Positions 4,335-37,448 of a stretch of DNA of 54,011 nucleotides are shown piece by piece. Numbering within the stretch: the first letter of the stretch is position 1; every line of letters begins with the position of its first letter. The notes below the pieces were generated by a model. It was not told where the DNA came from. It did not search any database and saw only the letters and a list, made by a program, of their open reading frames with translations. The DNA is taken from positions 1-54,011 of IMG/VR virus record IMGVR_UViG_3300045966_000076. The stretch is one strand, 5' to 3'. The position numbers and the translations under genes are program-made. The stretch is from a virus. Taxonomy: Duplodnaviria > Caudoviricetes.

Positions 4335-5621
4335 TTAGGGTTTCTGCGGGTTTCTACGGGTCGACCCGTCCGGGTGACCTGCAGGTCGACCCGTCCGGAC
4401 GTCGCGGCGCACAGGGGAACCAGGCGGGGGCACGGGGGTGCCTGGACGTCGACCCGTCCGGGTGCTCGACGTCCGGGTGCTCGGGTCGACCCGTCCGGGG
4501 GTGCTCGACGTCGCGCCGGTGATGAGCGCGCGCGCGCTGTCGACGTCGGCGAGCGCGGGGCCCGCGTACTCGAAGACCGCGCACGGTCGACCGCCGAGTC
4601 GTCGCGCGAGAATGCCGGATCCGCCCTTGCTGCCGATGCCGCCGGGCCGCTGCTTCAGCGCCCAGACCTTCGATCGATCGAAGGATCGAATCAGCGCCGG
4701 ATGCGCCGGATACGTGTGCACACGCTTCCCGATCGCGCGATACGCGGCGCCGAGCGTGTCGATGAGCGCGAGCGCCAGGCCGAGACCTTGAAAGTCCGGC
4801 AGCGTGACCAGTCGACTGCAGCCCCAGATGTCGTCGACCTTCGCGTGCGGCCGGTAGAGCATCCCGGCGAACGCCGCCATCTGCCCGCCGGTGAAGAGCG
4901 CGAAGCACGCGGCCGATCGATTCAGCTCGGCCGTCAGATAGTGAAACGGAGCGAAGCGACGCCACGCGGCAAACGGGACGCGTTCGACGGCGACCTCGAC
5001 GGGCGGGCGGCGTTGAAGCGACCTCCAGTCGACGGTCATCGTCGCGGGGTCGAGGATCCAGTCCGGCTGCAGCCAGTCGATGATGTCGTAGTGGCAGGAC
5101 GCGGCGACGAACTGCCGGCCGGGCGCTTTGCGGATGTACTTCTGTACCGCGTGGGCGCCGATCTGCGCGACCTGCCGATCGACGACGCTCGTGAACTCGT
5201 CGACGACGATCGGCGAGCTGGCCTCGAGGAGCCGCCGCGCGAGCTCGACGCGGAACCGCTCGCCGTTCGAGAGCACGGCGAACGGGCGCATCCAAGCCGG
5301 GATCGTATTGAAGCCGACGGCCTGGCAGACGGCCGCGATCGCGTCCATCGTCTGCACGTCGGCAAAGTCATCGACGACGGCGGGGGCGGTCCACGCGAAC
5401 TCAGCCGGGGGGCCGAACAGGTGCCGCAGAAGCGTCGTCTTGCCCGACCCGCTCGGGCCGACGATGAGCCCGATCTGCCAGCCCTTCGACTCGATGTCGA
5501 CGTCGCCGTCCCACTCGATGCGCGTCACTGCCCGCGGCGGCACGTCGAACATCGCCGACAGCTGCTTGACGCGCGAGCTGGCGCTCACGGGCGACTCGAC
5601 GCTCACCTTCACCTTCGGCAT
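4335..5621 (-). CDS. ABC-type ATPase fused to GNAT acetyltransferase
   Basis: GPSGSGKT, LSNGE, VVDEF; C-terminal SRLVTLPDFQGLGLA acetyl-CoA motif. Confidence 0.9.
   Translation of the reverse strand: MPKVKVSVESPVSASSRVKQLSAMFDVPPRAVTRIEWDGDVDIESKGWQIGLIVGPSGSGKTTLLRHLFGPPAEFAWTAPAVVDDFADVQTMDAIAAVCQAVGFNTIPAWMRPFAVLSNGERFRVELARRLLEASSPIVVDEFTSVVDRQVAQIGAHAVQKYIRKAPGRQFVAASCHYDIIDWLQPDWILDPATMTVDWRSLQRRPPVEVAVERVPFAAWRRFAPFHYLTAELNRSAACFALFTGGQMAAFAGMLYRPHAKVDDIWGCSRLVTLPDFQGLGLALALIDTLGAAYRAIGKRVHTYPAHPALIRSFDRSKVWALKQRPGGIGSKGGSGILARRLGGRPCAVFEYAGPALADVDSARALITGATSSTPGRVDPSTRTSSTRTGRRPGTPVPPPGSPVRRDVRTGRPAGHPDGSTRRNPQKP
4360..4498. repeat. Four copies of GTCGACCCGTCCGG
   Basis: Copies start at 4360, 4385, 4448, 4485. 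Confidence 0.8.
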
Positions 5622-20355: not shown

Positions 20356-21162
20356 TCAGCTCGTCGAGGGCCCCGGCCGGCGCCTGGCGGGGACGCCGGC
20401 GTCCCGCGGGGGGTCGCCTCGAGGCGCGGCCGCGCCTGGCGCCTCGAGCTGGGCCTGGTCGGGCCGAGCTGGGCCTGGTCGGGTCTGGGTCCACGGCGGC
20501 CGGAGCAGGACCCGCTCGTACCACGCGTCTTCGTCCTTGACGAACGTGCGAAAGGCCGCGAGCGCGCGCTCGAACCCGCGCACGGTCCCGCCCCGATCGG
20601 GGTGCGCGGCCAGCATCGCCGCGCGCAGCGCGGTCCAGCGCGCGAGCGCGAACTGGTCGTGCGCCTCGATCGAGACGCACGCCTCGCCGAGCTGACGCCA
20701 GCGGGGTCGTGGCAGCGGGACCGGCCGCGTCGGACGTGTCGGCACGAGCGCGACGCGGACGGCCTCAGCCAGCCGGCGCTGTGTGCGGTACTCCCGCTGC
20801 CGCACGCGCGAGCACGCGCGACAGACGCGCTGCCGGCCGGTCTGGATCGTGTTCGTCTCGTCGAATGGATGGCCCCGCGTGCAGGTCTCCTTCGTGCGGC
20901 GGCGGTCGGCACTCGCGCGGCCGGCGGCGGCGATCGACGCGCGCATCTTGTCCGTCATCCCGCTCGGCCCGTAGCGGGCGCGTCGCGTCTCGGCCGCCTG
21001 TCGACTGCCCTCCGATCGCGTCGCGTGTCGGAGTCGCGACCAGATCTGATAGCAGCGCAGACAGTGCAGGACCCACTTGCCGATCCGGCGGTGAAAGTAC
21101 CGGCGGCCGTGCTCGACGTAGAGATGCCCGCGTCGGCATCGCTTCGCGCGCTGCCAGCTCAC
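20356..21162 (-). CDS. Double zinc-finger protein with J-domain-like HPD C-terminus
   Basis: CRRGH..CLRC and CTRGH..CRAC; AAHPDRGG. Confidence 0.65.
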   Translation of the reverse strand: MSWQRAKRCRRGHLYVEHGRRYFHRRIGKWVLHCLRCYQIWSRLRHATRSEGSRQAAETRRARYGPSGMTDKMRASIAAAGRASADRRRTKETCTRGHPFDETNTIQTGRQRVCRACSRVRQREYRTQRRLAEAVRVALVPTRPTRPVPLPRPRWRQLGEACVSIEAHDQFALARWTALRAAMLAAHPDRGGTVRGFERALAAFRTFVKDEDAWYERVLLRPPWTQTRPGPARPDQAQLEAPGAAAPRGDPPRDAGVPARRRPGPSTS

Positions 21163-21383
21163 CGGCCTCGGCGGGCCTTCCGGCCGACGTCGATGTACGC
21201 GCCGGTCGCTTCGCGCATCACGGCTTCGTCGAGCGCGTAGTAGGTGACCTTCTGGTGCGCGTCGGCGCCGGGCGCGACGAACCAGTGCCGCTCGCGCCGC
21301 CATCCGCGACGCACGAGCCAGCGCGCCAGCGACTCGTAGGTCTGCTGGAGCGTCATCATCGGCAGGTGGTTCGTCTCGCTCAT
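21159..21383 (-). CDS. Hypothetical protein
   Basis: Coupled at both ends. Confidence 0.55.
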   Translation of the reverse strand: MSETNHLPMMTLQQTYESLARWLVRRGWRRERHWFVAPGADAHQKVTYYALDEAVMREATGAYIDVGRKARRGR

Positions 21384-23017
21384 CGCTTGCGCTTGCGCTT
21401 CGTCTCGCGCTGCACGAGCTCGGCCGCGGCGACCTCGCCGCCTTTGGTCTCGATGTCGACGACAGCCGAGCGCGTCGTCGTCGCGCGCTTCGGTTTCATC
21501 GTGAAGGTGACGACGCCGATCGCCCCCGCGAGCGGCCCGCTGCCCTTCGCCGTGCCCGTCCACTCGGCGGGCGCGAAGACCTCGACCTGCTCCTTCAGCT
21601 TCGCGACGGCGCCTTCGAGCAGCTCGACCTGGCCGCCGACCATCTGCACGTCGGCGAGGATCCTGCCGCTCGCCTGCGTCTGCACTTCCTTCAGCGCGCG
21701 CACTTCGTTCGCCACGTTCTGCAGTTCGTTCGTCACCCAGTCGAGTCGCTGCAGGATCGGGTACGGGTCGAGCGGCGGCGGCGGGGGCGGCGGCGGGGGC
21801 GGCGGCGGGCCCTCGGGCGCGATCGGCGGAACCCAGAGATTCGTGTCGGTCTCGCGTCCTTCCTGCGGTCGCGGGCCCCAGCTGACGCGCGCGGGCCCGC
21901 TCTTGCCCGCCGCATCGGGGCCGCCGGCGTCGCCGAAGCAATCGACGAAGACGCCGCCGGTGTGGACGATCGCATCGTGCGAGACGCGGTGCCCGTCGTA
22001 CCGCGTGCCGCCGGCCTGCCCCGGATCCTTGTGCAGCAGCCGCCAGCCTTTATCTGCTGATTCCCACAGCACGCGATTGAGGATCGCGACGAGCTGGTCG
22101 CTGGTCGGGTTGTCGACGTGCGGCTCGCCGTGTTGCGGCAGGTTCCGGCGCAGCGCGTCGATGGCGGGTTCGAGCGATTCAGGCATAACAGGCATCTCCG
22201 GATCTGGATCGGGTGGCGGTGGCGGTGGCGGTGGCGGCGGCGGCGGGTCGTCTTCCAGCGGCAGCGTCGCGAGGTCGGCGACGGTCAGCCAGAGCAGGTG
22301 CGCGGAGTCGCGGCGGGCGGCTTGCTTCCAGTACGCGATCGCGAGGTCGTCGCCGACACGGTTGAAGCGCACGAACCACGTGAACTGGCCGGGCTCGATG
22401 ATGTATCGCTTGCCGCGGTGCAGGATGAGCACGCCGCCCTCGTGGCCCTGGCCGACGACGATGTCGCCGATGGTCGTGTACTCGTGAATCAGCCGGCCGA
22501 AGTCGTCGCGCGTGTACGTGTAGGCGTGAATCTGCGGCACGCCGTCGGGGCCGATGTGACGGATGCCGCCGGCCGCGACGTCCTTGCCCTCGATGAGCGG
22601 CGCCGCCAGGCCGTCGCCGATGACGGCGTCCCAGCCCCGGATCCAGTAGACGCGGCCATCGGGCCCGAAGGCCGACGCGAAGGCGCCGGCGTGCGTCGAC
22701 GCCATCAGGTGCCAGTCGCGGTCGCCGCGCGGCCGGCGCGTCCGGTCGTAGACGATCACCTGATCGCCGCCCTGTTCGTGGCCGCAGATGCGATGCGATC
22801 CAGGCACCGGATCGAGCCGGGCGGTGATGATGCCGCCGCGCCGGATCTTCGTCACGCCGTCGCGGTCGAGTACCTCAAAGTCGAGGGGCGCGACGTCGCC
22901 GGCCCGGTTCTCGAAGACGCCGGTCTGGATCGGATCCCACGGGCCGGTAGTGCAGATCCACCGGCCATCGGGCATCGCCTCGGCGTAGGTCCCGCCCTCG
23001 ATGTCATGCGTTCTCAT
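21380..23017 (-). CDS. Multidomain protein with polyproline linkers
   Basis: Beta-rich N-domain, two poly-Pro runs, coiled coil. Confidence 0.8.
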   Translation of the reverse strand: MRTHDIEGGTYAEAMPDGRWICTTGPWDPIQTGVFENRAGDVAPLDFEVLDRDGVTKIRRGGIITARLDPVPGSHRICGHEQGGDQVIVYDRTRRPRGDRDWHLMASTHAGAFASAFGPDGRVYWIRGWDAVIGDGLAAPLIEGKDVAAGGIRHIGPDGVPQIHAYTYTRDDFGRLIHEYTTIGDIVVGQGHEGGVLILHRGKRYIIEPGQFTWFVRFNRVGDDLAIAYWKQAARRDSAHLLWLTVADLATLPLEDDPPPPPPPPPPPPDPDPEMPVMPESLEPAIDALRRNLPQHGEPHVDNPTSDQLVAILNRVLWESADKGWRLLHKDPGQAGGTRYDGHRVSHDAIVHTGGVFVDCFGDAGGPDAAGKSGPARVSWGPRPQEGRETDTNLWVPPIAPEGPPPPPPPPPPPPLDPYPILQRLDWVTNELQNVANEVRALKEVQTQASGRILADVQMVGGQVELLEGAVAKLKEQVEVFAPAEWTGTAKGSGPLAGAIGVVTFTMKPKRATTTRSAVVDIETKGGEVAAAELVQRETKRKRKR

Positions 23018-23040
23018 GTCGTCGGTCCCCTGTGCGCGCA

Positions 23041-23161
23041 GCCGCGCGACGCTGCCGGATTCCCGCCAGCCAGCCCGTTCGTGACCCGGCCAAGGCTCCC
23101 GGTGCCGAGCACACCCCAGCGAGCTGCTGTCATGCGCGGGCCGTCACATGCGTCGCGCGGC
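23041..23161 (-). ncRNA. Candidate structured RNA
   Basis: 12-bp closing inverted repeat plus nested stems in intergenic gap. Confidence 0.35.
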
Positions 23162-23169
23162 ATCTCAAA

Positions 23170-23814
23170 TCACGCCGCCGGCGGCGTCGGCGGCAGCTCC
23201 TTCGTGGGCGTGTTGACGGCGTCGGACATGGTGCCGACGTTCGGGTGCGCCGAGATCGCGCCGCGCTCTTCGAGGCGTTCGAGCTTCGCGACGCTGGTGA
23301 CCTGGCTGCGCTGCCACCACGTGACGCCGGCCATCACGAGCCCGATGACGCCGTAGATCATGTTCTCCGTGACGTCGATGCCCTGCGTCTGGAGCCACGG
23401 CACGACGAGCGAGACGATCAATGCGATGACCCCGCCCCCGGCGACGGCGCCGGTGACGACCGGGTTTTCTTTCATCCTCTGCGGCAGCATGAGTGTTCCC
23501 CTTCGATGGTTGACGTACGTGATCCAGATGACGACCAGCCCGACGACAAGATACGCCCAGCCCTCCGGAGTCGTCCACGTCCGGGGCACCGTCGGCGGCA
23601 ACCAGAAGTGCGGCACGACGATCGCCCAGAAGGATGCGAAGAGCGGGGTGAAATGTTTGTAGCGCGCGATCGCCAGCCACATGCGCGAGCTGATCGTGGC
23701 GACGACGATCGTCGGCCGCCGCCCCCGCCGGCCCTGCGCGAGCGCGATCGCCTCGAGAATCGCCGCGACGCCGACGATCACCCAGAGCACCCAGAAGTCC
23801 GTGAGCCAGGCCAT
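23170..23814 (-). CDS. Multi-TM holin-like protein
   Basis: About 5 TM helices; C-terminal half ends WWQRSQVT like holins; lysis context. Confidence 0.7.
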   Translation of the reverse strand: MAWLTDFWVLWVIVGVAAILEAIALAQGRRGRRPTIVVATISSRMWLAIARYKHFTPLFASFWAIVVPHFWLPPTVPRTWTTPEGWAYLVVGLVVIWITYVNHRRGTLMLPQRMKENPVVTGAVAGGGVIALIVSLVVPWLQTQGIDVTENMIYGVIGLVMAGVTWWQRSQVTSVAKLERLEERGAISAHPNVGTMSDAVNTPTKELPPTPPAA

Positions 23815-24050
23815 CAGGGATCCTCACGCCGCGCGGTCGGGGGCGGCCGCCGTTGAATCAACGCGTCGACATGTTCCTGCGGCGTCCGGTCGACGATCGG
23901 CCACGCGGCGCCGCAGTCGACACAGACAAAATGCAGCACGCCGACGGCGGCCGCCGGCGAGTGACCGCCGATCGGGCGTCGTTCGCGCACCACGCGCGGA
24001 TGCCGGCAGGCGGTCCAGAACCAGCGACGCAGCCATCGGCCCAGTCTCAC
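23814..24050 (-). CDS. Small Zn-ribbon protein
   Basis: CRH...CVDCG; coupled at both ends. Confidence 0.55.
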   Translation of the reverse strand: MRLGRWLRRWFWTACRHPRVVRERRPIGGHSPAAAVGVLHFVCVDCGAAWPIVDRTPQEHVDALIQRRPPPTARREDP

Positions 24051-24229
24051 GTGAGGCCCAGTCGATTGAGCACGATGAGCCCGACATAGAGCAGGAAGAG
24101 CGCGGCCGCGCAGACCGCGATCGCCCAGCAGATCGACTTGATGGTCTGCGGCACCGCCGTCCGCTCGACGAGGAATGAGAGCCCAACCAGACCGATCACG
24201 ATGAGCAGGAAGTAGAGAAAGACGGGCAT
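24047..24229 (-). CDS. Two-TM membrane protein (holin-like)
   Basis: 60 aa, two TMs, directly after endolysin. Confidence 0.7.
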   Translation of the reverse strand: MPVFLYFLLIVIGLVGLSFLVERTAVPQTIKSICWAIAVCAAALFLLYVGLIVLNRLGLT

Positions 24230-24771
24230 CAGGGCCTCCTTGTGTCGGTGACGAGTGACTCACGCGCGCGCAGTACCTTGCCGGCGTAATTGATGCCGGC
24301 GTCGCTGTCGATGCCGCCCCAGCCGGCGTTCCACGCCGCGAGCGCGACGACGTCGACGCCCTCGGCTTTGACGAACAGCGCGTGCAGGTGCGCACAGCCG
24401 GTCGCGAGATTGGCCTCGATGCGCGTGAGTTCGTCGAGGTACGGGTGCCGGTAGCCGCGCTCGCGCGCGACAGCGCCCATGATCTGCATCAGCCCCCAGC
24501 TCGTGCGCTGGCCCTGCCACTCGGCATCGCGATGGCCGGCGATGGTCGGGAAGTCCTCGGGCGCGGCCGCGCGGGCGAGTTCCTCGGCCGTGCACCGACG
24601 GAAGGGCGCGCGCGTCTGCACGTTGTACAGCCAGCGATAGCCTGGCTCCGGCTTGAAGGCGTACGGGTGTCCGCCCGACTCGACGACGATGAGCGCCTCG
24701 ACGAGCAGCGCGTCGAGGCCGAACCGCGCCGACTGGATCTCGATGTCGCGCGCGTAGGTCGTGCGGCTCAT
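24229..24771 (-). CDS. Endolysin, SLT lytic transglycosylase
   Basis: ALIVVES, SWGLMQIM, ALAAWNAG. Confidence 0.9.
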   Translation of the reverse strand: MSRTTYARDIEIQSARFGLDALLVEALIVVESGGHPYAFKPEPGYRWLYNVQTRAPFRRCTAEELARAAAPEDFPTIAGHRDAEWQGQRTSWGLMQIMGAVARERGYRHPYLDELTRIEANLATGCAHLHALFVKAEGVDVVALAAWNAGWGGIDSDAGINYAGKVLRARESLVTDTRRP

Positions 24772-25154
24772 GGGCGCACCTGATACACGACGGCGATCAC
24801 GAAGCCCCGATCGTCGAGCATCGCCGGCGACAGTTGAATCACGACGTCGAACTCGCGGCCGTCTTTCCGCTGGCCGACCAGCCTCATGTTCGGCAGGCCC
24901 ATCGTCCGCAGTCGCGGATGCTCGCGATAGCCCCGTCGATGCTCGCGGTGCGCCGCCCGCAAGTGCGGCGGCAGCAGGATGTCGACGGGTTGCCCGATCA
25001 ATTCCTCGGCCGTGTAGCCGAAGAGTGCGAGCAGCGGCGGCGACGCCGCGACGATGTTGCCCGTCGTCATGTCTTCGACGAGGATCGGCGTCGACGCCCA
25101 TAGCGCCTCGAAGAGCTGCGGTTTGTAGAGGAAGGCTTCGAGATGGGTGAACAT
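24768..25154 (-). CDS. Stand-alone PAS domain protein (FixL heme-PAS-like)
   Basis: GNIVAAS..LFGYTAEELIGQPVDILLP..RAAH..MG...GQRKDGREFDVVIQLS. Confidence 0.9.
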   Translation of the reverse strand: MFTHLEAFLYKPQLFEALWASTPILVEDMTTGNIVAASPPLLALFGYTAEELIGQPVDILLPPHLRAAHREHRRGYREHPRLRTMGLPNMRLVGQRKDGREFDVVIQLSPAMLDDRGFVIAVVYQVRP

Positions 25155-25156
25155 CG

Positions 25157-25597
25157 CTATCCTCGCGCGTCGCGCTCACGGTCGCGCTGGTCCCGGTCGG
25201 CCTCGCGCTGATCACGAACCCGATCGCGGTCCCGGTCCCGGTCGCGATAATCCCGCAGCTCCTGAATCATTTGCCGCGTGAGCTGCATGTCCTTGTTGAC
25301 GGCCTCGGCCAGATGCTGCATCTGGATCTCGTGCTGCCGAAGGATCCGTTCGATCGACGCGGCGAAGTCCGTGCGCTGCTGCGCGATCGCGCCCAGCATG
25401 TCGGCCCGTTGGACCTTGAGGGCCTCGGCCATTTCGGCTTCGTGGGATGCGACCATCTCGCGTCGGCTCTTCTCCTGCGCGGGCAGGTGCACGAGCAGCA
25501 GCCAGGCGAGTACACAGCCGAGCAGGCCCGCGCCGACCCAGCCAGCGCCGCCGGAGATCGGATCACTCTGCGCGACGACGAAGACCATCATCATCAT
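25157..25597 (-). CDS. Single-TM coiled-coil protein (holin-like), RD-rich tail
   Basis: TM AGLLGCVLAWLLL, coiled coil, RDRDRDRD. Confidence 0.7.
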   Translation of the reverse strand: MMMMVFVVAQSDPISGGAGWVGAGLLGCVLAWLLLVHLPAQEKSRREMVASHEAEMAEALKVQRADMLGAIAQQRTDFAASIERILRQHEIQMQHLAEAVNKDMQLTRQMIQELRDYRDRDRDRDRVRDQREADRDQRDRERDARG

Positions 25598-25902
25598 GTC
25601 CAGACCTCAAGCACCTGCCGACGCAGGCGATCGCGCGCCTCGCTCTTCTCCAGTTCTCGCTCGAACGGCGTACAGCCGCCCGCGTCGTAGCACTGCAGGC
25701 AGATCGGCGCCATGCACTGTCGACAAAACGCGCCCGGCTCTTCGCGCCACTGCTGCTGCGCGTCGACGACAAGGTACACCGTGGTGCCGGTGCCCGGCTT
25801 GACGAAGACGATCTGCTCGCAGTGCTGACAGCTGATCGTGTCGTTCTCGACGATGCGGCCGTCGGCCTGGATCAGCGTCGCGAGGCCATGCGGGCGGCGC
25901 AT
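25594..25902 (-). CDS. Zinc-finger protein
   Basis: CQHC...CRQC..ICLQC..C; TGATG coupling. Confidence 0.75.
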   Translation of the reverse strand: MRRPHGLATLIQADGRIVENDTISCQHCEQIVFVKPGTGTTVYLVVDAQQQWREEPGAFCRQCMAPICLQCYDAGGCTPFERELEKSEARDRLRRQVLEVWT

Positions 25903-26354
25903 CAGTCCTCCCAGTGCAGGAGCGCCGTGATCGCGACCGCGTCGCCCGTCGGCGTCTTGATGCCGATGCCGTTGGCGGACGTCGCCGGCGTCGTGATGAC
26001 CTTCCGCTCGTCGAGCGGCGTCCACTTGAACTGGCCCGCGCGCCGGTTCCACGGCAGCGTGAGGACGACCTTGTTCGCCGTGTACGTCGGCTCGGCGCTG
26101 TGGTTCTGGCCGGCGAGCTGCTCGCTGACCGGGTCGCCGTCGATGAGTTCGGCGGGCGTCACGGCCGTCGACGTGCCGAGCGCGGTGCACCGCTGCACGA
26201 CCCAGAGGAACGCCGCATCGGCCGGCGTCGCCTCCGAGCCGAGCACCATGTAGAAGTGCCGGATCCGACGCGGCCGCGTCGAGAAGGCGCCCACGGTGCC
26301 GAGCGACTGCGAGTTGTGCGCCGTCCGCTGATGAGTCGTTGCAAAGGCTCCCAC
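25902..26354 (-). CDS. Putative virion protein (beta-sandwich)
   Basis: Follows tail tip; RBS; beta-rich. Confidence 0.7.
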   Translation of the reverse strand: MGAFATTHQRTAHNSQSLGTVGAFSTRPRRIRHFYMVLGSEATPADAAFLWVVQRCTALGTSTAVTPAELIDGDPVSEQLAGQNHSAEPTYTANKVVLTLPWNRRAGQFKWTPLDERKVITTPATSANGIGIKTPTGDAVAITALLHWED

Positions 26355-26367
26355 GTTGTCCTCCCTA

Positions 26368-29300
26368 TCAAACCATCCACGCGGTCTGGATCTCGTCGTC
26401 GTCTGTCGCGGTGACCGCCGCGCGCCAGCGACTGGCCCGTACCGCCGCCGCCCAGACCTGCTCGGCCGCGAGCTGCTCGGCTTCCTGCTGCGCGCCGGCC
26501 GTCGGGCTGGTCGGCGTCGACGGGAAGAACAGCCGGTGCACGTCGAGGCATTCGAGTCGCACGGTGTACGTCTGCGGGTTCGTCATGTGCCGGACGACGC
26601 GGCAGAGCCGGTCGGTCCAGCCACTCACGCCCGTGCCCTCGATGTTCGTGACCTTGATGACGTCGCCGAGTTCCGTCGACAGGCCCTTCAGGTTCGTCGC
26701 GACCATCACGTACCGCGGCGTCTCTTTGTAGAAGTCGAGTCGGCGCCGGACGATGTCGTTCGCGACGGACGCCGAGCGCACGCCGTACAGCTCGATGACC
26801 GGGCTCCGCTTTTCTTCGCGCCGGTCGGCGATCGCGGTGGCGTCAGCGAGCTCGGCCTCGAGGACGTCCCACGCCGCCTGGCCCTGGCCGACGACGTAGC
26901 GGCGGCGGTAGCTGTGGACGATGATGTTCTCGACCTCGTCCGTCCGCGGCGCCAGCTCGAACGACGCGCGGATGGTGTCGTGCAGCTGCGTGTAGTTCTT
27001 CGCGGCGGCGCCGACCGCACTCGACGTGTCGAGCGCGCTGACGAAGTACGCGCTGTTCCGATTGAAGCCCGACTGACAGTCGGCCGACAGATTCAGGCGC
27101 GCGATCGCCTGGCGCAGCGTGATGTGCTCGCCGTTGACGCCGAACGCGATCACGCCCGGATAGCCGCCGACGAGACGCACGGCGTGCACCGCCTTCAGCG
27201 CGTCGAAGCTGGCGACGTCGACCTGCGGCATGACGGTCCCGTCGACGTCGACCGGCCAGGTCGGCACCGCGAGCGGGCCGCCGGTCTTGTAGTTCTGCAG
27301 GAACCACTGCACAACGAGATCGCGGTAGATGTCGGCGAGCTGCTCGATGAGCGTGCCGGTGCCGTCGCCGGTCGTCTCCTTGCCCTTCACGTTCGCGGTC
27401 AGCGGCTGCGATCCGTCGGCGGCGACGAGCCCGTCGGGCCCGCGCACCATGACGCACGTGAACCGCTCGCCGCCGATGTCGACGTACTGCGGGTTGCCGG
27501 TGTTCGCGAAGTACGTCGAGTAGCCGGTCTTCCCCGGCACGGCGAACGTGACGCCGTACTTGCCGGGGTCGACGCGCACGCCGCCCTGATACAGGTCGAC
27601 GATCTCCTTCACCGCGTGGCCGGCGACGAGGAAGCGGTACCACTGCTGCGACGGGCTCGACAGGTCCATCACGGTGCCGACCGGGATGAGCGGGATCGCG
27701 CCGGTCGGCACGGGGGCGCCCGTGATGTACGTGACGTTCGTGTCAAGGTTGTCGTCGTCGAACTGCGTGGTTCCGACCGGCACCTGCCACACGCGATCCC
27801 ATGTCGCGGCCGGCTCGCGGCGATAGACCTTGTACGAGAGCGGCGCGATCGCGGGGGCCAGCCACTCGACGCGGAACGGGCGGCGATGGCCCTGCCAGGT
27901 GGCGGTGCCGTCGGGGGCCGAGAGCGCGGTTTCGCCGTTCGCGTAGACGGCGCTCACGGCATAGTGGTGGTACTGCCCCCACTGCGACAGGTTCGCACCC
28001 GGCGTGATGTTCGCGGCCGTCACCGGCGTCTGCCACGGCGGGCTCGTCGTGAAGGTCGCGGTCACGGTCGGCGCGGTGACCTCGATGAACTGGGTGACGC
28101 GCGCGCCGTAGTAGTACCAACTGAGATAGACGCGGTACTTCGCGGCGTTGGCGGCCGCCGACCACGTCGCGACGATCGACTGCGAGCCGTTGACGGTGAT
28201 CGTCTGCACGTTGGCGGGGAACGTGCCCCGACTGCCGTTGTGCGGGACGTTCGTGAAGCCGCAGTCGGGATCGGTCTCGCGCCCGCTCGCGTCGACGGCC
28301 GTCACGAAGACGCCGTACTTCGCATCGGGGACGTCGTCCGACACGGTCCCGCCGCCGGCGGTCGTGAGGCCGAGGCCGGTCGGCACGGCGGCATCGGAGA
28401 CGAGCGGCGCGAAGCCGAAGATCTGGTAGCCGTCGTCGACGTGCGCGCCGGTCGCGGTGCCGGTGAGCACCGGCGGCGGGTTCGAGCTGCCGGCATCCGA
28501 CAGATCGCCGTAGAGAATCGGCACCGGCTTCTTCACGGTCGCGATCGGGCAGTCGGGGAACTGCACGCGCGAGATCGTGCGCTGCGGGATCTGCTTCTCC
28601 AGATTCGCCGGGCCGAACTTCGAGGCCAGGAAGTCGCGCGCGATGAACTGCACGTGGAGCGGCGCGCGCGGCTGCACGTCGCGCACGATGCCCCGCACGA
28701 GCACGCGCGGCATCTTCAGCAGCCGGCGGCTCGCGTCGTCGATCATCCGGATGAGCGCCATGCGGTTCTCGATCGTTTTCGATCGATCGGATTCGAGCAG
28801 CGCGCGGATGAGATGCGAGGGCGTCGCGCCGATCGCGGCGTCGCTCGCCAGCCAGGACCACTCCGCCGCCTCGTACTGGCCGAGCCGGTCGGACAGGCCG
28901 CGGTTGATCTCGCCGAAGCCGATGATGCGCGGTTCCTTGTACCCGCCGTAGTAATCAATCGGATCGTTGAGGTCGACCGGCGCCCAGAGATACGTCTTCG
29001 GGTTGCCGCCGGTGTCGACGTGGTCGAGCTCGACCCACGACAGGCCGATGACTTCGCCCGACTGCTGCGGCAGCGTGCCGAAGTCGACCTCGGGCACCGA
29101 CTCGACGCGGAGCGCCAGCCAGAAGAAGTCGCGCACGGTGGCGTCGGTCGTCGTCCAGTTGAGCGTGAACCCGTCGGCGGTGAGCGCCTGCACGTCGCAC
29201 TCCGACCGCAGCGTGCTGTTCGCGTTGAAGTACCGCAGGGCCTTGGCATTCGTGTGCATCCGCTGCGCGTTGCCGAACTGCGCCTGGTCTCCGCCCTGGC

Positions 29301-30282
29301 AGAACTCCGTCACGCCGTCGCCGACGCCGAGCGCCCACTGCACGTGATCGTTATCGACGCCGTTGACGAGGCCGGCGCCGCCGAGCATCACGAGCTCGGG
29401 CTCGAAGGGCACGCCGGTGATCGTCTGCGTGCCGTTCGACGTCGGCTGATCGGCCTCGCCCGACTTACCGCGCACGCCCTTCAGCGCCAGATATAAGACG
29501 CGGCCGGCCGACACGCCGAGGCCTGCGATCTCCTGCCAGCGCACGCGGAAGCCCGACGACAGCATCGTGAGCAGCGAGCCGTGGTCGTTCGGCGAGTTGT
29601 TCGTGTCGATCCACTGGCCGAAGCCGTTGGAGTCGGCCTGCGAGGTCGAGCCGGAGCTGCTGTCGTTCGTCTCCGAGGCGAAGTACGCCTGCGTCAGATC
29701 GGCACACGACCAGCCGAAGGTGCTGGGCCGGCCGTTGCCGACGGCGTCGAAGTCGCCATGATTGCCCGGCCCCGGCCCGACCATCTGCCAGAAGACCAGC
29801 GACGGCTCGAAGCCCACGGTCGTGATGTCCTGATCGATGGATTGATTGGCGGTCGTCGACCGCGTGAACGCGGCGACCTTGGCCTCGACGCCGTTGCCGG
29901 CGATCGCCAGGTAGCTGATGACGTGCGCGGGCGGATCCGGCGTCAGCCCATTCGTCGTCCAGTTGAGCGTGAAGCCGCCGCTGTCGAATGACTGCACCGT
30001 CGCGAGCGCGAGCAGCGAGGTCGTCACGCAAATGATCGCCGCCGCCTCCGACTGGTAATACTGCCCGTTGCCGAAGGTGCCGGATTCCTTCATGCCGGCC
30101 CGCGCGACGCTCGTCACGCCGTCCGAAAAGCCGAAGCTGAAAAACTCCGTCGCGATGTAGCCGTCGGCGAGGTTGTTCCACGAGGTCCAGAAGATGATCG
30201 CCTTGGGCTGGAAGCCGAGCCCGGTGACCTGCTGCGTGCCGGTGCCGAAGCGCGGCGAGAACTCGCCGATCTTCATCGCCAT
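26368..30282 (-). CDS. Tail tip/baseplate hub protein with extra domains
   Basis: 1304 aa; PILYG, ELGDVIKV; N-terminal repeated GFTLNW / (G/P)F(Q/E)P domain. Confidence 0.8.
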   Translation of the reverse strand: MAMKIGEFSPRFGTGTQQVTGLGFQPKAIIFWTSWNNLADGYIATEFFSFGFSDGVTSVARAGMKESGTFGNGQYYQSEAAAIICVTTSLLALATVQSFDSGGFTLNWTTNGLTPDPPAHVISYLAIAGNGVEAKVAAFTRSTTANQSIDQDITTVGFEPSLVFWQMVGPGPGNHGDFDAVGNGRPSTFGWSCADLTQAYFASETNDSSSGSTSQADSNGFGQWIDTNNSPNDHGSLLTMLSSGFRVRWQEIAGLGVSAGRVLYLALKGVRGKSGEADQPTSNGTQTITGVPFEPELVMLGGAGLVNGVDNDHVQWALGVGDGVTEFCQGGDQAQFGNAQRMHTNAKALRYFNANSTLRSECDVQALTADGFTLNWTTTDATVRDFFWLALRVESVPEVDFGTLPQQSGEVIGLSWVELDHVDTGGNPKTYLWAPVDLNDPIDYYGGYKEPRIIGFGEINRGLSDRLGQYEAAEWSWLASDAAIGATPSHLIRALLESDRSKTIENRMALIRMIDDASRRLLKMPRVLVRGIVRDVQPRAPLHVQFIARDFLASKFGPANLEKQIPQRTISRVQFPDCPIATVKKPVPILYGDLSDAGSSNPPPVLTGTATGAHVDDGYQIFGFAPLVSDAAVPTGLGLTTAGGGTVSDDVPDAKYGVFVTAVDASGRETDPDCGFTNVPHNGSRGTFPANVQTITVNGSQSIVATWSAAANAAKYRVYLSWYYYGARVTQFIEVTAPTVTATFTTSPPWQTPVTAANITPGANLSQWGQYHHYAVSAVYANGETALSAPDGTATWQGHRRPFRVEWLAPAIAPLSYKVYRREPAATWDRVWQVPVGTTQFDDDNLDTNVTYITGAPVPTGAIPLIPVGTVMDLSSPSQQWYRFLVAGHAVKEIVDLYQGGVRVDPGKYGVTFAVPGKTGYSTYFANTGNPQYVDIGGERFTCVMVRGPDGLVAADGSQPLTANVKGKETTGDGTGTLIEQLADIYRDLVVQWFLQNYKTGGPLAVPTWPVDVDGTVMPQVDVASFDALKAVHAVRLVGGYPGVIAFGVNGEHITLRQAIARLNLSADCQSGFNRNSAYFVSALDTSSAVGAAAKNYTQLHDTIRASFELAPRTDEVENIIVHSYRRRYVVGQGQAAWDVLEAELADATAIADRREEKRSPVIELYGVRSASVANDIVRRRLDFYKETPRYVMVATNLKGLSTELGDVIKVTNIEGTGVSGWTDRLCRVVRHMTNPQTYTVRLECLDVHRLFFPSTPTSPTAGAQQEAEQLAAEQVWAAAVRASRWRAAVTATDDDEIQTAWMV

Positions 30283-31085
30283 CAGAGCACCAGCCCGCGC
30301 GAGACTTCCGCCAGCGTGAGCCGGATGCGGTTGTCGTTCGTGAAGACGCGCTGCACCGCGCGCGTCGTGTCCTTCCAGCGCATGAGGTAGCAGCGATTGA
30401 TCGCCGGGTCGGGGATGACGAGCGTCGGCACGGCGCGGCCGCCGCACGCGTCCCACCACGCCTCGATCGCGGCGATGCCGGCGTCGGATGTTTCGATCTC
30501 GCCACTCAGCGAGGCGACGCGCGCGCCGAGCTGGTAGATCGTCGAGACCAGATAGTCGGTGACGTGCTCGATGAGCGGGCGCTCGATGCCGTCCTCGACG
30601 CCCCAGAGGACGTTGTGCACGAGCTCGCGCTTCGGCACGAGCATCTTGAACTCACCGAGTTGCACGTTGACGCTGTTCGCGCCGACGACGGCCAGCCGCC
30701 AGAAACGGAACGATCGCGAGCCGATGCCGGTGAGGTCCTTGAACGGATTCACCGGCCACGGCAGGACGGGGTCGGGATCGTAGGCCGGGATCGTGATGGC
30801 CTGGTCGAGCGTCGGCGAGCCCCAGCTGTCGGTCGCGTTGCCTTGGATGCGGACGTTGAGGCCGGCGTCGAGGTTGTGATGGACGATCGCGACGAGGTCG
30901 AGCGTCTGCGCCGACCCGAAGTCCCAGACGATATTCGGCGAGGTCTGCGTCGACTTCCACGGCTTGGCCGGGTTGCCGTCCCAGAGATTCTCGACCGGGT
31001 ACTCGACGACCTGGCTCGACGGGGTCACGAGCGCGGCGTTGTCGACGACGTCGTCGCCGGGATGGGAGTAGACCAGCTTCGCCAT
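30282..31085 (-). CDS. Distal tail protein-like (discoidin-like N-domain)
   Basis: Directly after tape measure; ENLWDGNP..W, WDFG, HNL, RFWRL. Confidence 0.7.
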   Translation of the reverse strand: MAKLVYSHPGDDVVDNAALVTPSSQVVEYPVENLWDGNPAKPWKSTQTSPNIVWDFGSAQTLDLVAIVHHNLDAGLNVRIQGNATDSWGSPTLDQAITIPAYDPDPVLPWPVNPFKDLTGIGSRSFRFWRLAVVGANSVNVQLGEFKMLVPKRELVHNVLWGVEDGIERPLIEHVTDYLVSTIYQLGARVASLSGEIETSDAGIAAIEAWWDACGGRAVPTLVIPDPAINRCYLMRWKDTTRAVQRVFTNDNRIRLTLAEVSRGLVL

Positions 31086-33910
31086 CAGGTCACCGGGATG
31101 CCGAGAATCTGCTGCGCCGACGAGCGGCCGCCGCGGATGTTGTTGGCGAGGTAGTCGTTGAAGAGCGGGCCGATCTCTTCATAGACCAGCTGCCGGATCG
31201 TGTCGATGGTGCCGATCGGCGTGTGCACGTTGAAGGTGACGGAGCCGCCGCCGGCGCCGAGGCCGGTGCGCGCCATCGCCTCGGCCAGCGCGTTGACGAG
31301 CGCGTCCGGCGAGCCGACGATCTCCGGGCCCGCTTCGGCCACGACGCGCAGCGCCGGCCTCGAGAACAGCCCGCCGTGCTGTGCGCCGCCGACGTCGACC
31401 TCGCCGCCCCCGCCGAAGAGCCGGAACCCGCCGCGCGGCCGGTTGATGGCGCGATCGATCGCGGAGTCGTCGACGTCGATCTTCACGGTCGGCGTGTTCG
31501 TGATCGCCTTGCCCAGATCGCCGGTGATCTTCTTGATGAGTTCGTCCAGCTTGTCGATGACGCCCTTGAAGCCCTGGCCGATGGTCATGCTGAAGCTGAG
31601 GCCGGCGTCCTCGGCCGACGCGAACTTGTTGCCGTTCTCGTCGACGAGCAGGCCCAGCTCGGCCATCCGATCAGCGGTCGCCTTCAGCTCGATCGGGATT
31701 TCCTGATTCGCCTTCTTCGCGGTCTGGAAGTACTCGTTGTAGGCGCCGGCCATCTTGCGGATGACGGTGTCGTTGTCGATGCCAGAGCCGACGAGCAGCG
31801 TCATCTCTTCGAGCAGGCCCTGCGCCTGTTCGGTCAGCCGCTGGGCCTGCCACTTCGGGCCCAGCTCTTCGATCGTGAAGCCGTACTTCTCGACGGTGGC
31901 CTGCAGCTTGTCGCGCGCGTCGACCTCGGCCTGCGCCTGGTCGACCTGCTTCTTCTTCACGTCGTCGTAGAACTTCTTGACGTCCTCCATCCAGCGACGA
32001 TTGCCGGCCTCGTCCTTGCGGCCGATGACGTTGAGGCCGATGTGCGCGAGCTTCTCGCCCTCGGCGCCCAGCTTCCGCAGGTCGTCGTACAGCCCGCCCA
32101 GATTGTTGAAGCCGAGCACGTCCTTCGCGAACGACTCGCGCGTACCCTTCGTGACGTTCTTGTTGACCGACAGCAGCTTGTCGACGAGCTGCCCGCCGAA
32201 CGCGCCGACGAGCGTGCCGAGGCCGGGGATGATCGAGCCGAGCGCGCCGCCGATGGTCTTGCCGAGCCCCTTCGAGATCACGCCGCCGAAGTGCTCGGTG
32301 AACTTCTGGCCGACGAACCCGCCGGCCAGGCCGCCGACCGACTTGCCGACGTCGCCGCCGCCGGTGATCGCCGACAGGATGGTCGGGCCGAACAGCTTGC
32401 CGAACTCCGGGCCGAAGTCTCGAACGAGCGCCTGCGCGAACGTCTTGCCGACGCTCGGCGGCGGCGTGAGGCTGACCGTCGCGGCGAACGCGCCCGACAG
32501 ATCGATCGGGCCCTTGTTGATGAACGTCGATCCGAAGTCCCGAATCTGCTGCAGGACCGCCAGCTCTTCCTGCAGCGTGCGCGTCTGTTCGCGCACTTCC
32601 ATCGTGAAGGCGCGCGTCTTCGGCAGCAGCGTGTCGAACCCGCCGCCCACTTGGGCGGTGATGTCCTTCAGCGCCAGATGTTTGATGTAGAGATCGTGCG
32701 CTTCCTTCGAGAGCAGCGGCAGGCCGCCGGCGTCGACTAGCGGCTTGATCTTCGCGAGCATCCGGTCGAGGTTTTCGGGCGCGGCCTTCTGCTCGGCCGT
32801 CATCTTCGCGAAGGCGGCGTTGAGCTGGGTGATCTCGCCGCGCAGCTTCGTGCCGCTCATCTCGTCGACGAGGCCCTCGATTGCCTTGCGCTGCGCTTCG
32901 GCCGCCGCCTTCGCATCCTTCTGCGCCTGGGTCAGCTCGCCCGTCTTCCCGCTCAGCCACGCCGTCGAGTCGCTGAGTTTCTTGTTTTCCGAGGCGAGCA
33001 GTTTTTTGATGTCGGCCGCTTCGAGCTCGGCGAGCTGCTGCTGCTTCAGGTTCCCCATGTAGCCGGCGTGCGCCGCGCCGGCGCCGGCGAAGCCGCCCGA
33101 CAGAAACCCGCCGGCGGTGGCCTTCACGTCGCCGAACAACTTCTGGAAGCCTGCCGCGGCCGGCCCGATGCCGCGCAGCAGGTCGTACATGTTGCCCAGG
33201 TCTTTCGTCAGATTGCCGAGAACCGTGCCGCTCCAGATCGTGATCTGGTTGAAGAAGTTGCCCCAGGCATCCTTCGCGTCGTCGAGGCGCTTGATCGTCT
33301 CTTCCGACATGGTCGCCGCGCCTTCGGCGACGCCGAGGAAGCCGCTACGGATCGCGGGCAGTAGCGTCGCGCCGGATTTGCCGAGCAGCTCCAGCGTGAC
33401 CTGCGTCTGCTGCATCGGGTTCGGGATCTTCTCGACGGCGGCGACGATCGCCTTGAAGGCGTCTTCCGGTTTCATCTTCCGGAGATCGTCGAGTTCGAGT
33501 CGGGCGATCTTCAGCGCATCGATCGTGCCTTTCGTCGGCGAGGCCAGCACGTCGTTCATCTTGATGATCGACTTCGACACGCCCTCCAAGTCGCCGCCCG
33601 TCTGCCGAGCGGCGTGCGCGAATTGCTGCGCGGCCGTCGTGCCGATGCCCATGCGAGCCGAGAGATCAGAGATCTGCTCGGCGCTGTCGAACACGTGCTT
33701 CGTGAACCCGACGACGGCACCGATGCCGAACGTCACGCCCATCAGCCCGGCGACGCTCTTGAGCGAGCTGGTCATGCCGCCGAGCATTCCGCGCTGCTTC
33801 TCGATGTCGGAGCTGACGCCCTGCACCGACTTCCGGACGGAGTCGAACTCGCCCTTCGTCAGGTTCTTCGCTGAGACGCGGATGACGATCTCTTTGTCCT
33901 GATCAGCCAT
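31085..33910 (-). CDS. Tail tape measure protein
   Basis: 941 aa helical A/G-rich protein after chaperones. Confidence 0.9.
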   Translation of the reverse strand: MADQDKEIVIRVSAKNLTKGEFDSVRKSVQGVSSDIEKQRGMLGGMTSSLKSVAGLMGVTFGIGAVVGFTKHVFDSAEQISDLSARMGIGTTAAQQFAHAARQTGGDLEGVSKSIIKMNDVLASPTKGTIDALKIARLELDDLRKMKPEDAFKAIVAAVEKIPNPMQQTQVTLELLGKSGATLLPAIRSGFLGVAEGAATMSEETIKRLDDAKDAWGNFFNQITIWSGTVLGNLTKDLGNMYDLLRGIGPAAAGFQKLFGDVKATAGGFLSGGFAGAGAAHAGYMGNLKQQQLAELEAADIKKLLASENKKLSDSTAWLSGKTGELTQAQKDAKAAAEAQRKAIEGLVDEMSGTKLRGEITQLNAAFAKMTAEQKAAPENLDRMLAKIKPLVDAGGLPLLSKEAHDLYIKHLALKDITAQVGGGFDTLLPKTRAFTMEVREQTRTLQEELAVLQQIRDFGSTFINKGPIDLSGAFAATVSLTPPPSVGKTFAQALVRDFGPEFGKLFGPTILSAITGGGDVGKSVGGLAGGFVGQKFTEHFGGVISKGLGKTIGGALGSIIPGLGTLVGAFGGQLVDKLLSVNKNVTKGTRESFAKDVLGFNNLGGLYDDLRKLGAEGEKLAHIGLNVIGRKDEAGNRRWMEDVKKFYDDVKKKQVDQAQAEVDARDKLQATVEKYGFTIEELGPKWQAQRLTEQAQGLLEEMTLLVGSGIDNDTVIRKMAGAYNEYFQTAKKANQEIPIELKATADRMAELGLLVDENGNKFASAEDAGLSFSMTIGQGFKGVIDKLDELIKKITGDLGKAITNTPTVKIDVDDSAIDRAINRPRGGFRLFGGGGEVDVGGAQHGGLFSRPALRVVAEAGPEIVGSPDALVNALAEAMARTGLGAGGGSVTFNVHTPIGTIDTIRQLVYEEIGPLFNDYLANNIRGGRSSAQQILGIPVT

Positions 33911-36424: not shown

Positions 36425-36901
36425 TTACCCGTTCGGCTGCCCGTAGGTGCGACGCAGCGGGATCGCCAGGTCCACGCGGGCCCAGACCTGCGAGCCGTCG
36501 ATCAGCAGGTCCTGCTCGGCCGCGACGATCTGCGTGTCGCGCGCGAGCCCGCCGCGCGTGAGGTCGGCGACGACCGCCTTCTCGATGTCGGCGCAGCCCC
36601 TGAAGAACGTCTTCATGCGGCTGTCGTCGTCGGTCGGGACGGCGATGCTGCACCAGTGCACGGTCACCGGCAGCGTGCGCTTCAGCTCGCCGGCCTGGAA
36701 GTATTCCCACGGCCCCGGTTTCACCTGCAGCACGATGAACGGGCGCGGGCCGGTCGGCTCAAACATCGACTCGATGTCGCGGTCGGGGTCGAGCCGGACG
36801 GCGGTGCCGGCCAGCGTGAAGAAGTACCCGGCTCCGACGGAGATCGCGGCGAGGGCGGCCTGCAGGTTCTTCACGATCAGGTACTCAATCGGCTCCGGCA
36901 T
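36425..36901 (-). CDS. Tail terminator/completion protein
   Basis: Synteny; DIEKAV..D.T.GGLA motif. Confidence 0.75.
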   Translation of the reverse strand: MPEPIEYLIVKNLQAALAAISVGAGYFFTLAGTAVRLDPDRDIESMFEPTGPRPFIVLQVKPGPWEYFQAGELKRTLPVTVHWCSIAVPTDDDSRMKTFFRGCADIEKAVVADLTRGGLARDTQIVAAEQDLLIDGSQVWARVDLAIPLRRTYGQPNG

Positions 36902-37448
36902 CGGCGGCCTTGCTCTTCGCGAAGTTCAGCTCGTGCGCCATGTTCTTGTCGAAGACGTCGAGCACTTTCTGGATGCCCTGCGGGCGGTGTTTGCCGAAGA
37001 CGTGCCCGATCGACGGGCCGAACTTCTCGTCAATCGGCAGGCGCCGCGCGCCGGGAACGCGGACGAAGACGCCGCGATGTCCGCTGCGCATCGTCGCGAT
37101 GAAGGCCTCGCGGATGCGACCGCGCCCGCCCTTCAGCCGGTAGCTCACCCCGCCGCCCTTGCCGCGCGACGGCTCGGGCCCGCGCGCGCCGAACTTGATG
37201 AGCGGGATCCGTTTGAGCGAGGCGAAGATGGCGGCCGACGGGCGCGAGATCGTCGCGTCGGCTTTGCGCATCGCGGCCTTTACGTCGCTCTGCTTGAGGC
37301 CGGTGTCGGCCGCGATCAGCCGGGCCATCAGGGTATTGCCGGCGAGGATGGACCGATTGAGCGCGCGGACCAGCGCGCGCGTGACGGCCTGCGGCTTCTC
37401 CTTGAAGTCCGCGATGATCTCCTTGTCGCCGGTCACGGTCAGCTGCAC
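36885..37448 (-). CDS. Minor tail protein Z-like
   Basis: RALNR...AFIATMRSGHRGVF.R...LPI...GPSI. Confidence 0.85.
   Translation of the reverse strand: MQLTVTGDKEIIADFKEKPQAVTRALVRALNRSILAGNTLMARLIAADTGLKQSDVKAAMRKADATISRPSAAIFASLKRIPLIKFGARGPEPSRGKGGGVSYRLKGGRGRIREAFIATMRSGHRGVFVRVPGARRLPIDEKFGPSIGHVFGKHRPQGIQKVLDVFDKNMAHELNFAKSKAADAGAD

Follow-up and report, generated by a model that had tools for sequence, protein, structure and literature searches.

The window considered here is the complete IMG/VR record IMGVR_UViG_3300045966_000076 (54,011 bp, estimated to be 100% complete, G+C content of ~68%), a genome of the Caudoviricetes in which the minus strand holds nearly all genes and the gene set is lambda-like. 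Downstream of its fibre gene lies a run of genes, all on the minus strand, whose stops and starts overlap or almost touch (Table 1). Between a small membrane-anchored coiled-coil protein and an endolysin, this run encodes a protein of 128 amino acids (aa) in which only a PAS domain is recognised, and which is the subject of the present analysis. The gene of the transmembrane (TM)-coiled-coil protein ends on a TAG codon, the ATG of the PAS gene follows after 2 nt, and the TGA stop of the PAS gene overlaps the ATG of the endolysin gene as ATGA. The endolysin is a lytic transglycosylase of the SLT type (180 aa; Pfam SLT, 1.1e-9, above the curated cut-off) devoid of a signal or signal-arrest-release (SAR)-like N-terminus. 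It contains the string 'VVESGG', the Glu-Ser of which we take to be the catalytic motif, and it is the sole protein of the PAS region recognised by PHROGs, with matches to lytic tail protein, transglycosylase and endolysin families. The third-position G+C of the PAS gene (0.84) is like that of the neighbouring genes, and a promoter and terminator scan of positions 22800-26600 returned nothing beyond the shuffled expectation, which is weak evidence compatible with a single late transcript for the run.

Regarding the PAS protein, the only models found by Pfam in its open reading frame (ATG to TGA) are PAS models (PAS_9, 3e-10; PAS, 7.9e-7; both above curated cut-offs), without an output domain such as HisKA/HATPase, GGDEF, EAL or helix-turn-helix (HTH). 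The AlphaFold2 model, computed from a 36-row alignment, adopts the canonical PAS fold (pLDDT 92.6, pTM 0.84; helix 63-78, strands 83-127), and its best Foldseek matches are EcDOS (DosP), FixL and FG214 (probability 1.00, TM-score 0.71-0.76), LOV domains being found lower. FixL and DosP, top structural matches at 0.71-0.75, share its fold and align with it without gaps. Searching the PDB by phmmer with the single sequence retrieved FG214, a one-component regulator of Fimbriimonas ginsengisoli (PDB 10jx/10jy; 1.2e-10), as best match, followed by DosP (1e-8) and FixL (5.7e-8). With A6, a 36-row alignment and profile of this PAS type, 20 PDB matches were obtained at E<=1e-5: the best 14, from 5.8e-31 (FG214) to 3.8e-19, are all heme PAS and belong to FG214, R. 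meliloti FixL, B. japonicum FixL and DosP, while the remaining six (E>=1.8e-7) cover the N-terminal part only. By these comparisons, the full-length similarity of the window PAS type is specific to heme PAS within the PDB.

The protein has both the string LFGYTAEELIGQPVDILLP and the His of RAAH (H69), and it shares with FG214 the stretch PERFR..H..H......P..R.MG. In the model, H69 is located within helix 63-78, and it is aligned with the His of DosP 'RPAH', the His of FG214 'REVH' and the second His of FixL 'HEH', those of DosP and FixL being presumably the proximal heme ligands. H69, H72 and M85 are aligned with FG214 His156, His159 and Met172, respectively, and L87 occupies the column of DosP Met95. 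Among the rows of A6, H69 is invariant (36/36) and M85 is kept in at least 90%, H69 being a candidate proximal heme ligand and M85 a candidate distal one. According to the available part of the report on FG214, this protein binds heme b with His156 as proximal ligand and, in the ferric state, His175 as distal ligand; dithionite-soaked crystals exhibit His156-Met172 ligation, and the redox and ligand state of the heme sets the oligomeric state through a monomer-dimer switch (10.64898/2026.03.15.711900). FG214 is a cellular protein with a LuxR-type HTH output domain, and the PAS of FixL or DosP is the N-terminal module of a kinase or of a cyclic di-GMP phosphodiesterase, whereas the window PAS is a whole protein, without output domain, in a phage lysis cassette. 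Judged by its sequence, it is a member of the heme-PAS clade formed by FixL, DosP and FG214, with heme binding itself predicted. A first-pass annotation, made from the letters of the window, had described a PAS-only gene 2 nt after a single-TM coiled-coil gene and overlapping the SLT endolysin gene, with a FixL-type pattern and a His at the position of the proximal ligand. The gene arrangement is borne out by the sequence and by Pfam, and the profile and structure searches that it had called for place the protein in the heme-PAS clade; the FixL-type reading was right, since PDB matches, A6 profile, Foldseek and the alignment of H69 agree on it.

An exhaustive HMMER search with the PAS protein gave 35,332 representatives at E<=1e-3, and the top 150 matches listed are all longer proteins (372-5,490 aa), most of them with three or more matched stretches. 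By sequence, its nearest relatives are individual PAS repeats within multi-PAS proteins of bacteria, at ~40-45% identity and with a best single-domain score of 76 bits (282 bits for the protein against itself). The window PAS follows the consensus of these domains, LFGY.R.EL.GQP.E.L.PERFR..H..HR.GY...PR.R.MG.GLEL.GRRKDG.EFPVEISLSPL. Among proteins of 70-224 aa, a search for words shared with the PAS protein considered 13 candidates and retained only the protein itself.

The 146-aa protein encoded immediately upstream comprises a short N-terminal stub, a Gly-rich TM segment GGAGWVGAGLLGCVLAWLLL (residues ~16-36), a helical or coiled-coil region and an Arg/Asp-rich tail. Its hydrophobic segment 18-36 is flanked by no K/R on the N-terminal side and by three on the C-terminal side, which predicts an N-out/C-in topology with the coil in the cytoplasm. 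We found 76 homologues of this protein (77 with itself; 91-253 aa; E<=0.01), and the core common to the 77 proteins, AQ.DPISGGAGWVGAGLLG.VL.WLLL.HLP.KDKQ, corresponds to a conserved N-terminal stub and Gly-rich TM, the coil being variable. The last ~35 residues of the window protein are an almost pure alternation of Arg and Asp (RDYRDRDRDRDRVRDQREADRDQRDRERDARG), a tail that the homologues do not have. The protein has no Pfam or PHROG family and no match among 50,697 GenBank phages; its nearest ESM-Atlas clusters, 86-100% viral, are a lead only. Being small, with one TM domain (18-36) that has a glycine-rich face, a charged C-terminus and a position one gene away from the SLT endolysin, it has holin-type features, and its architecture makes it the best holin or holin-regulator candidate of the cassette.

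Two of the 76 homologues carry a C-terminal PAS of the S-box type, which is a cytoplasmic kind of domain. In P0314 (253 aa; found on 23 contigs), identity to the window protein is 42% over the N-terminal 100 aa (BLASTP, 3e-22) and the PAS spans residues 149-252 (9e-17), and in P0305 (232 aa) the PAS is found at residues 125-224. An Rz-type inner-membrane spanin (i-spanin) was also considered for the 146-aa protein and was ruled out on the basis of the predicted topology and of these PAS fusions; on reading the sequence, no open reading frame with a canonical lipobox, as expected of an outer-membrane partner, was seen in or after its gene. The TM-coiled-coil family was not found in any other fetched locus, nor in five other PAS-bearing virus records, where the empty result is uninformative. 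A complex prediction for the PAS protein (with A6) and residues 38-128 of the TM-coiled-coil protein, run without controls, scored 0.02 against a mark of 0.32 and is not evidence either way.

Short PAS genes recur in other phages. Profile-based scans of the viral_contigs and metagenome_contigs collections gave 18 locus ids, among which L066 and L059 are one contig, the PAS of L068 is that of L055, L074 is a 1.3-kb fragment left out of the context counts, and L002 and L057 are histidine kinases. One further locus, L060, lies on a contig that is labelled viral and encodes a PAS of 199 aa that is anchored by a TM and has a motif close to that of FixL (PYRDEHDGYL). The genes around it, for a GT2 glycosyltransferase and a subtilase, are not phage-looking, and it may be host DNA or another use of a tethered heme PAS. 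The 12 remaining places hold a short PAS protein (126-184 aa) in a phage-like context, making 13 with the window. In 13 of these 13 places, a small TM gene overlaps the PAS gene or lies within ~20 nt of it, or else PAS and TM are fused, a raw count to which no background rate is attached. An endolysin recognised by Pfam or PHROGs lies within 2 kb of the PAS in 5 of the 13 (again a raw count). Three unrelated enzyme classes are represented among them: the window has the SLT enzyme, L058 and L061 each have a Peptidase_M15_4, and both L059/L064 and L067 have a GH19 enzyme. The PAS directly adjoins the endolysin in three phages, and a single small gene separates them in a fourth.

The arrangement closest to that of the window is the one of the PAS proteins that we call family B, found in L059 (the start of whose contig is L064) and L067, with PAS 50% identical to each other. 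Here a tailspike is followed by a multi-TM protein, then by one or two coiled-coil proteins with an N-terminal TM, the PAS, the GH19 endolysin, a TM protein and an Rz-like gene. The succession of N-terminal-TM coiled-coil protein, PAS and endolysin is that of the window, and spanin-like genes come further on in L059 and L067. The family B PAS overlaps the preceding gene by 8 nt, the Rz-like gene has an embedded or overlapping lipoprotein gene, and the GH19 endolysin (phrog_181 at 1.2e-50 in L067) has, by sequence reading, a peptidoglycan-binding-like N-terminus. In the linear 44,662-bp record of L059/L064, this endolysin is divided between the two ends, with the peptidoglycan-binding-like N-terminus at one and the GH19 domain at the other, so that the genome is circular or circularly permuted.

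The other loci combine the same elements in different ways. In L058, two TM proteins precede the PAS, which is followed by an 89-aa TM protein (4-nt overlap) and by the Peptidase_M15_4 endolysin (phrog_2649 at 7.4e-21), and in L061 two N-terminal-TM proteins precede it, a 78-aa coil-plus-C-terminal-TM protein follows with an ATGA overlap, and a TM protein and the M15_4 endolysin come 1.8 kb further. Family A (L055/L068, L056, L069, L070, L072 and, as a variant, L073) is characterised by a 61-80-aa coil-plus-C-terminal-TM gene that overlaps the PAS start and by small multi-TM genes that follow; L071, whose sequence begins with the PAS gene, shares the genes found downstream. No endolysin recognised by Pfam or PHROGs lies within 2 kb of the PAS gene in this family, and in L072 a lysozyme-like gene (phrog_1259 at 6.2e-24) is found 2.7 kb downstream. 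Finally, L062 encodes, after a pectate-lyase-like tailspike, a 184-aa TM-PAS fusion of the window PAS type that overlaps a 112-aa multi-TM gene. As judged from flank charges, the N-terminal-TM partners in L058, L059, L061 and L067 are predicted to be N-out/C-in like the window protein, and the N-terminal coil of the C-terminal-TM partners is predicted to be cytoplasmic; in every predicted case, coil and PAS would thus share the cytoplasm. Between the coil-plus-C-terminal-TM partners of family A and of L061 there is a weak similarity (phmmer 3e-5, in a small set), although the phages differ by more than 20 G+C points.

A profile built from seven viral PAS proteins matched 221 proteins of 69-322 aa at E<=1e-5, and 39 among the 120 matches listed are of 185 aa or less. 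By sequence reading, 12 proteins were assigned to family A and nine to family B. Within each family, members are 54-89% identical to its first row, with many invariant positions, and their longest contigs range from less than 1 kb to ~53 kb, several having the size of a phage genome (17-53 kb). Profile scans for prophage copies found neither family in species-representative bacterial genomes. In a quick tree, family A and family B form clades with supports of 98 and 97, L058 and L061 are paired inside the bacterial radiation, and the window PAS stands beside family A (SH-aLRT 95) on long branches, a placement that is not relied on here. This tree is read as showing several old PAS lineages, and no single origin is claimed.

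Taken together, the overlap with TM genes in several PAS lineages, the recurrence of one gene order beside endolysins of different folds, the fusions and the matching predicted topologies indicate, as far as sequence comparison can, that the PAS protein and the membrane-anchored coiled-coil protein act together, and the gene setting points to the lysis step. The reading that we favour, to which we give a probability of about one half, is that of a cytoplasmic, stand-alone sensor of the heme-PAS type that is paired with the membrane-anchored, holin-like coiled-coil protein and modulates the timing of lysis. The two genes would then constitute a module. Heme would be held via H69, with M85 as sixth ligand, and would report O2, NO, CO or the redox or respiratory state, by analogy with FG214, FixL and DosP. 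A change in heme ligation or redox state would modify the oligomeric state or the surface of the PAS, in the manner of the FG214 monomer-dimer switch; the modified PAS would bind or cross-link the cytoplasmic coil of its partner differently, and the altered coil would advance or delay the opening of membrane holes and, with it, the release of the SLT endolysin. A broader view, possible and advanced only tentatively, is that of an undescribed class of lysis control in which a heme-PAS, free and docked or fused to a coiled-coil holin-like protein, would gate holin triggering, allowing uncultured soil and sediment phages to match the moment of their burst to the oxygen status or respiration of the host, the device having been built independently in several lineages from PAS modules of host sensor kinases.

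Several observations weigh against the favoured reading. The column of the distal His175 of FG214 holds N89 in the window PAS, so that this ligand is not kept, the PAS of L061 has no equivalent of M85, and the PAS domains of P0314 and P0305 are of another subtype, without the His motif; accordingly, the module may not always involve heme. The membrane-protein genes of the run have no match to any Pfam or PHROGs holin family, and the 76 TM-coiled-coil homologues are known here from their protein sequences alone. A tblastn search with four viral PAS proteins against the same 50,697 GenBank phages found none, no cultured phage is known to carry the gene, and the window PAS itself is not encoded in any GenBank phage searched and has no PHROG match at all. 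Moreover, a PAS relative is absent from all 52 viral loci whose endolysin is related to the window SLT protein, and in L004 and L005 a 222-aa N-terminal-TM coiled-coil gene directly precedes the endolysin with no PAS between them, from which it follows that the PAS is dispensable for this kind of cassette. Adjacency alone is also weak evidence, because accessory genes, too, are often located in the stretch between tail-fibre and lysis genes, where small TM genes are frequent.

On the 52 loci devoid of PAS and on this frequent presence of accessory genes draws a first alternative, namely that the PAS gene is an accessory gene (moron) whose free PAS mimics a module of host multi-PAS kinases, heterodimerises with it and blunts or hijacks host signalling late in infection, its location among lysis genes being incidental. 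The kinship to single repeats of bacterial multi-PAS proteins, with its wide gap between best and self score, and the position of L058 and L061 in the tree would also suit it. We nevertheless consider it unlikely, as the PAS overlaps or abuts a small TM gene in all 13 places and in at least four PAS lineages, as PAS is found fused to TM or TM-coiled-coil parts, and as the phage families sit on long branches with conserved residues of their own, unlike a recent capture.

A second alternative, which we likewise hold to be improbable, accepts a membrane-tethered sensor module and assigns it another output than lysis timing, such as superinfection exclusion, the control of respiration or of membrane potential in the host, or signalling towards another late function. 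It is served by the same pairing evidence as the favoured reading, by TM partners that match no known holin family and by family A, where no recognised endolysin is close to the PAS. It is less easily reconciled with a PAS located beside the endolysin in three phages and one small gene off in a fourth, across three enzyme classes, or with the spanin-like genes that follow in L064 and L067.

That the PAS acts on the endolysin itself, as a signal-released cytoplasmic inhibitor or chaperone, appears very unlikely. The ATGA overlap between PAS stop and SLT start, and the position of the PAS directly upstream of the endolysin in L059 and L067, would favour such a role, whereas the adjacent endolysins have unrelated folds (SLT, GH19), at least one gene intervenes in the case of the M15 class, none adjoins the PAS in family A, and the fusions link PAS to TM or coiled-coil parts and never to an endolysin. 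Least credible of all is an inert remnant of a host sensor-kinase gene still to be lost, for although the protein has no output domain and no close relative in the 70-224-aa search, its fold is intact and confidently modelled, its gene is coupled with precision to the adjacent ones at both start and stop, its third-position G+C is that of its neighbours, its ligand residues are kept and analogous stand-alone genes are conserved in families of nine and 12 members.

The signal-controlled lysis system proposed by the first-pass annotation, with the adjacent membrane protein or the endolysin as PAS partner, is thus retained in part. The heme-PAS type and the context of pairing with a TM gene agree with it; the endolysin is a weaker partner candidate than the membrane protein, since no endolysin adjoins the PAS in family A and since different enzyme classes are found from one phage to another. 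Its 'holin-like' TM genes fit by their architecture and not by a match to a described holin family in Pfam or PHROGs. The conserved neighbourhood that it had suggested looking for was encountered, the order TM, PAS, endolysin being seen again in other phages and short PAS genes being found, by raw counts, beside lysis genes. TM-PAS fusions, which it had anticipated, exist in L062 and, within the TM-coiled-coil family of the window, in P0314 and P0305.

Known systems of lysis timing offer partial parallels to the favoured reading. Lysis timing determines burst size and phage fitness, and its known regulators are antiholins. In holin/antiholin systems such as lambda S105/S107, P1 LydB, and T4 T together with RI and RIII, the lysis cassette or its vicinity encodes small accessory proteins that bind the holin and change the moment at which holes form. 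With T4 RI, this moment is made to depend on an environmental signal, the lysis inhibition of T4 being an answer to superinfection, and RIII works from the cytoplasm. We know of no such timing protein with a PAS or cofactor-binding sensor domain, nor, more generally, of a lysis-timing regulator with a ligand-binding sensor domain. We found no sequence similarity between these systems and the window PAS or the TM-coiled-coil protein, neither of which has a PHROG match. Short PAS/LOV proteins such as PpSB1-LOV (8a36) and W619_1-LOV (5luv), found lower in the Foldseek list, are likewise PAS-only and effector-free, and signal by oligomerisation or partner binding; unlike the window PAS, they are flavin-binding light sensors of cellular origin, without a membrane partner in their operon.

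PAS folds in phages have already been recorded, as BFVD contains 11 matches to the PAS model at E<=1e-3, including giant-virus sensor kinases and four 'PAS domain' entries of 169-205 aa from uncultured Caudovirales. These BFVD entries are 11-26% identical to the window PAS and are known from annotation only. A full-text search of the literature, with most subscription journals and supplements outside its scope, found neither a role of PAS in phage lysis nor this gene arrangement, and, to the extent of these searches, no free or TM-tethered PAS sensor has been described within a phage lysis cassette. Similar PAS arrangements in unrelated phages suggest that, in some phages, the timing of host lysis depends on a chemical signal. 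Should the favoured reading be correct, a phage would sense chemistry directly at the lysis decision by means of a cofactor-bearing PAS, and the reading of host physiology beyond membrane potential at this step would become testable with two or three small genes. A function would also be assigned to two unnamed, mostly viral families, the GGAGWVGAGLLG-type TM-coiled-coil proteins and the stand-alone PAS of families A and B, and the system could provide, for laboratory work, a compact lysis module switched by O2 or redox state.

Table 1. Positions of the genes and features mentioned in the text, in the window and in other PAS-bearing contigs.
Feature	Sequence	Positions	Strand	Remarks
gpA-type large terminase	window	47488-49560		lambda-like set
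lambda-family portal	window	44504-46126		lambda-like set
Protease-capsid fusion	window	38261-40321	minus	one 686-aa open reading frame: prohead protease domain (Peptidase_S78) and major capsid domain (Phage_capsid_4)
gpZ	window	36885-37448		lambda-like set
Tape-measure-like long gene	window	31085-33910		lambda-like set
Fibre-like gene	window	26368-30459		1363 aa; lambda-like set
150-aa protein	window	25902-26354	minus	first listed gene after the fibre gene
102-aa Cys-rich protein	window	25594-25902	minus	several CxxC pairs; start of the translationally coupled run; stop overlaps TM-coiled-coil start (ATGA)
146-aa bitopic TM-coiled-coil protein	window	25157-25597	minus	
Arg/Asp tail of the 146-aa protein	window	25157-25260	minus	
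128-aa PAS-only protein	window	24768-25154	minus	
180-aa SLT endolysin	window	24229-24771	minus	
60-aa protein	window	24047-24229	minus	hydrophobic segments 3-21 and 35-53; class-II-holin-like size and shape; TGATG overlap with endolysin stop
79-aa Arg-rich protein	window	23814-24053	minus	one hydrophobic stretch; GTGA overlap with preceding gene
214-aa multi-TM protein	window	23170-23814	minus	end of the coupled run; TGATG overlap
545-aa protein	window	21380-23017	minus	
428-aa protein	window	4335-5621	minus	
199-aa TM-anchored PAS	L060	4782-5381	plus	
Divided GH19 endolysin	L059; L064	5185-5466; 2-517		
~220-aa proteins	L070; L069; L072; L071	5679-6323; 1738-2403; 4763-5440; 887-1549		
230-aa Tad4 protein	L055	6668-7360	minus	
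RCC1-like/PKD proteins	L070; L072	2131-3780; 2150-3748	plus	

With respect to the remainder of the run, the 102-aa Cys-rich protein has only sub-threshold matches to zinc-finger models of Pfam and no PHROG match, the 60-aa and 214-aa TM proteins have no Pfam or PHROG match, and the 79-aa protein has no PHROG match. RecT-like and ParB-like genes are present further along the genome. A megablast of positions 21000-31000 against GenBank phages gave no match, and searching viral_contigs with the 150-aa, 214-aa and TM-coiled-coil proteins identified no close phage relative, nor any relative at all of the 214-aa protein.

Additional features were noticed around the family A genes. Proteins of ~220 aa with a hydrophobic N-terminus ending in LR.GC are encoded in L069, L070, L071 and L072; two of them have a C-terminal TM, and the one of L072 matches DUF6808 (2.2e-6). 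A u-spanin-like reading of these proteins was given little weight, as it relies on architecture and LR.GC is not a canonical lipobox. Just upstream of the pair formed by the coil-TM and PAS genes, L070 and L072 encode proteins with an RCC1-like beta-propeller and PKD domains, which are probably receptor-binding proteins. At ~1.3 kb from its PAS gene, L055 encodes a 230-aa protein with a Tad4 domain (type I Thoeris inhibitor; Pfam 1.4e-28).

In the window, a 545-aa protein containing two 12-residue poly-proline tracts, without Pfam or PHROG family, is encoded directly after the lysis-region genes. Elsewhere in the genome, a 428-aa protein associates a P-loop N-terminus (ABC/AAA-like) with a GNAT acetyltransferase domain.

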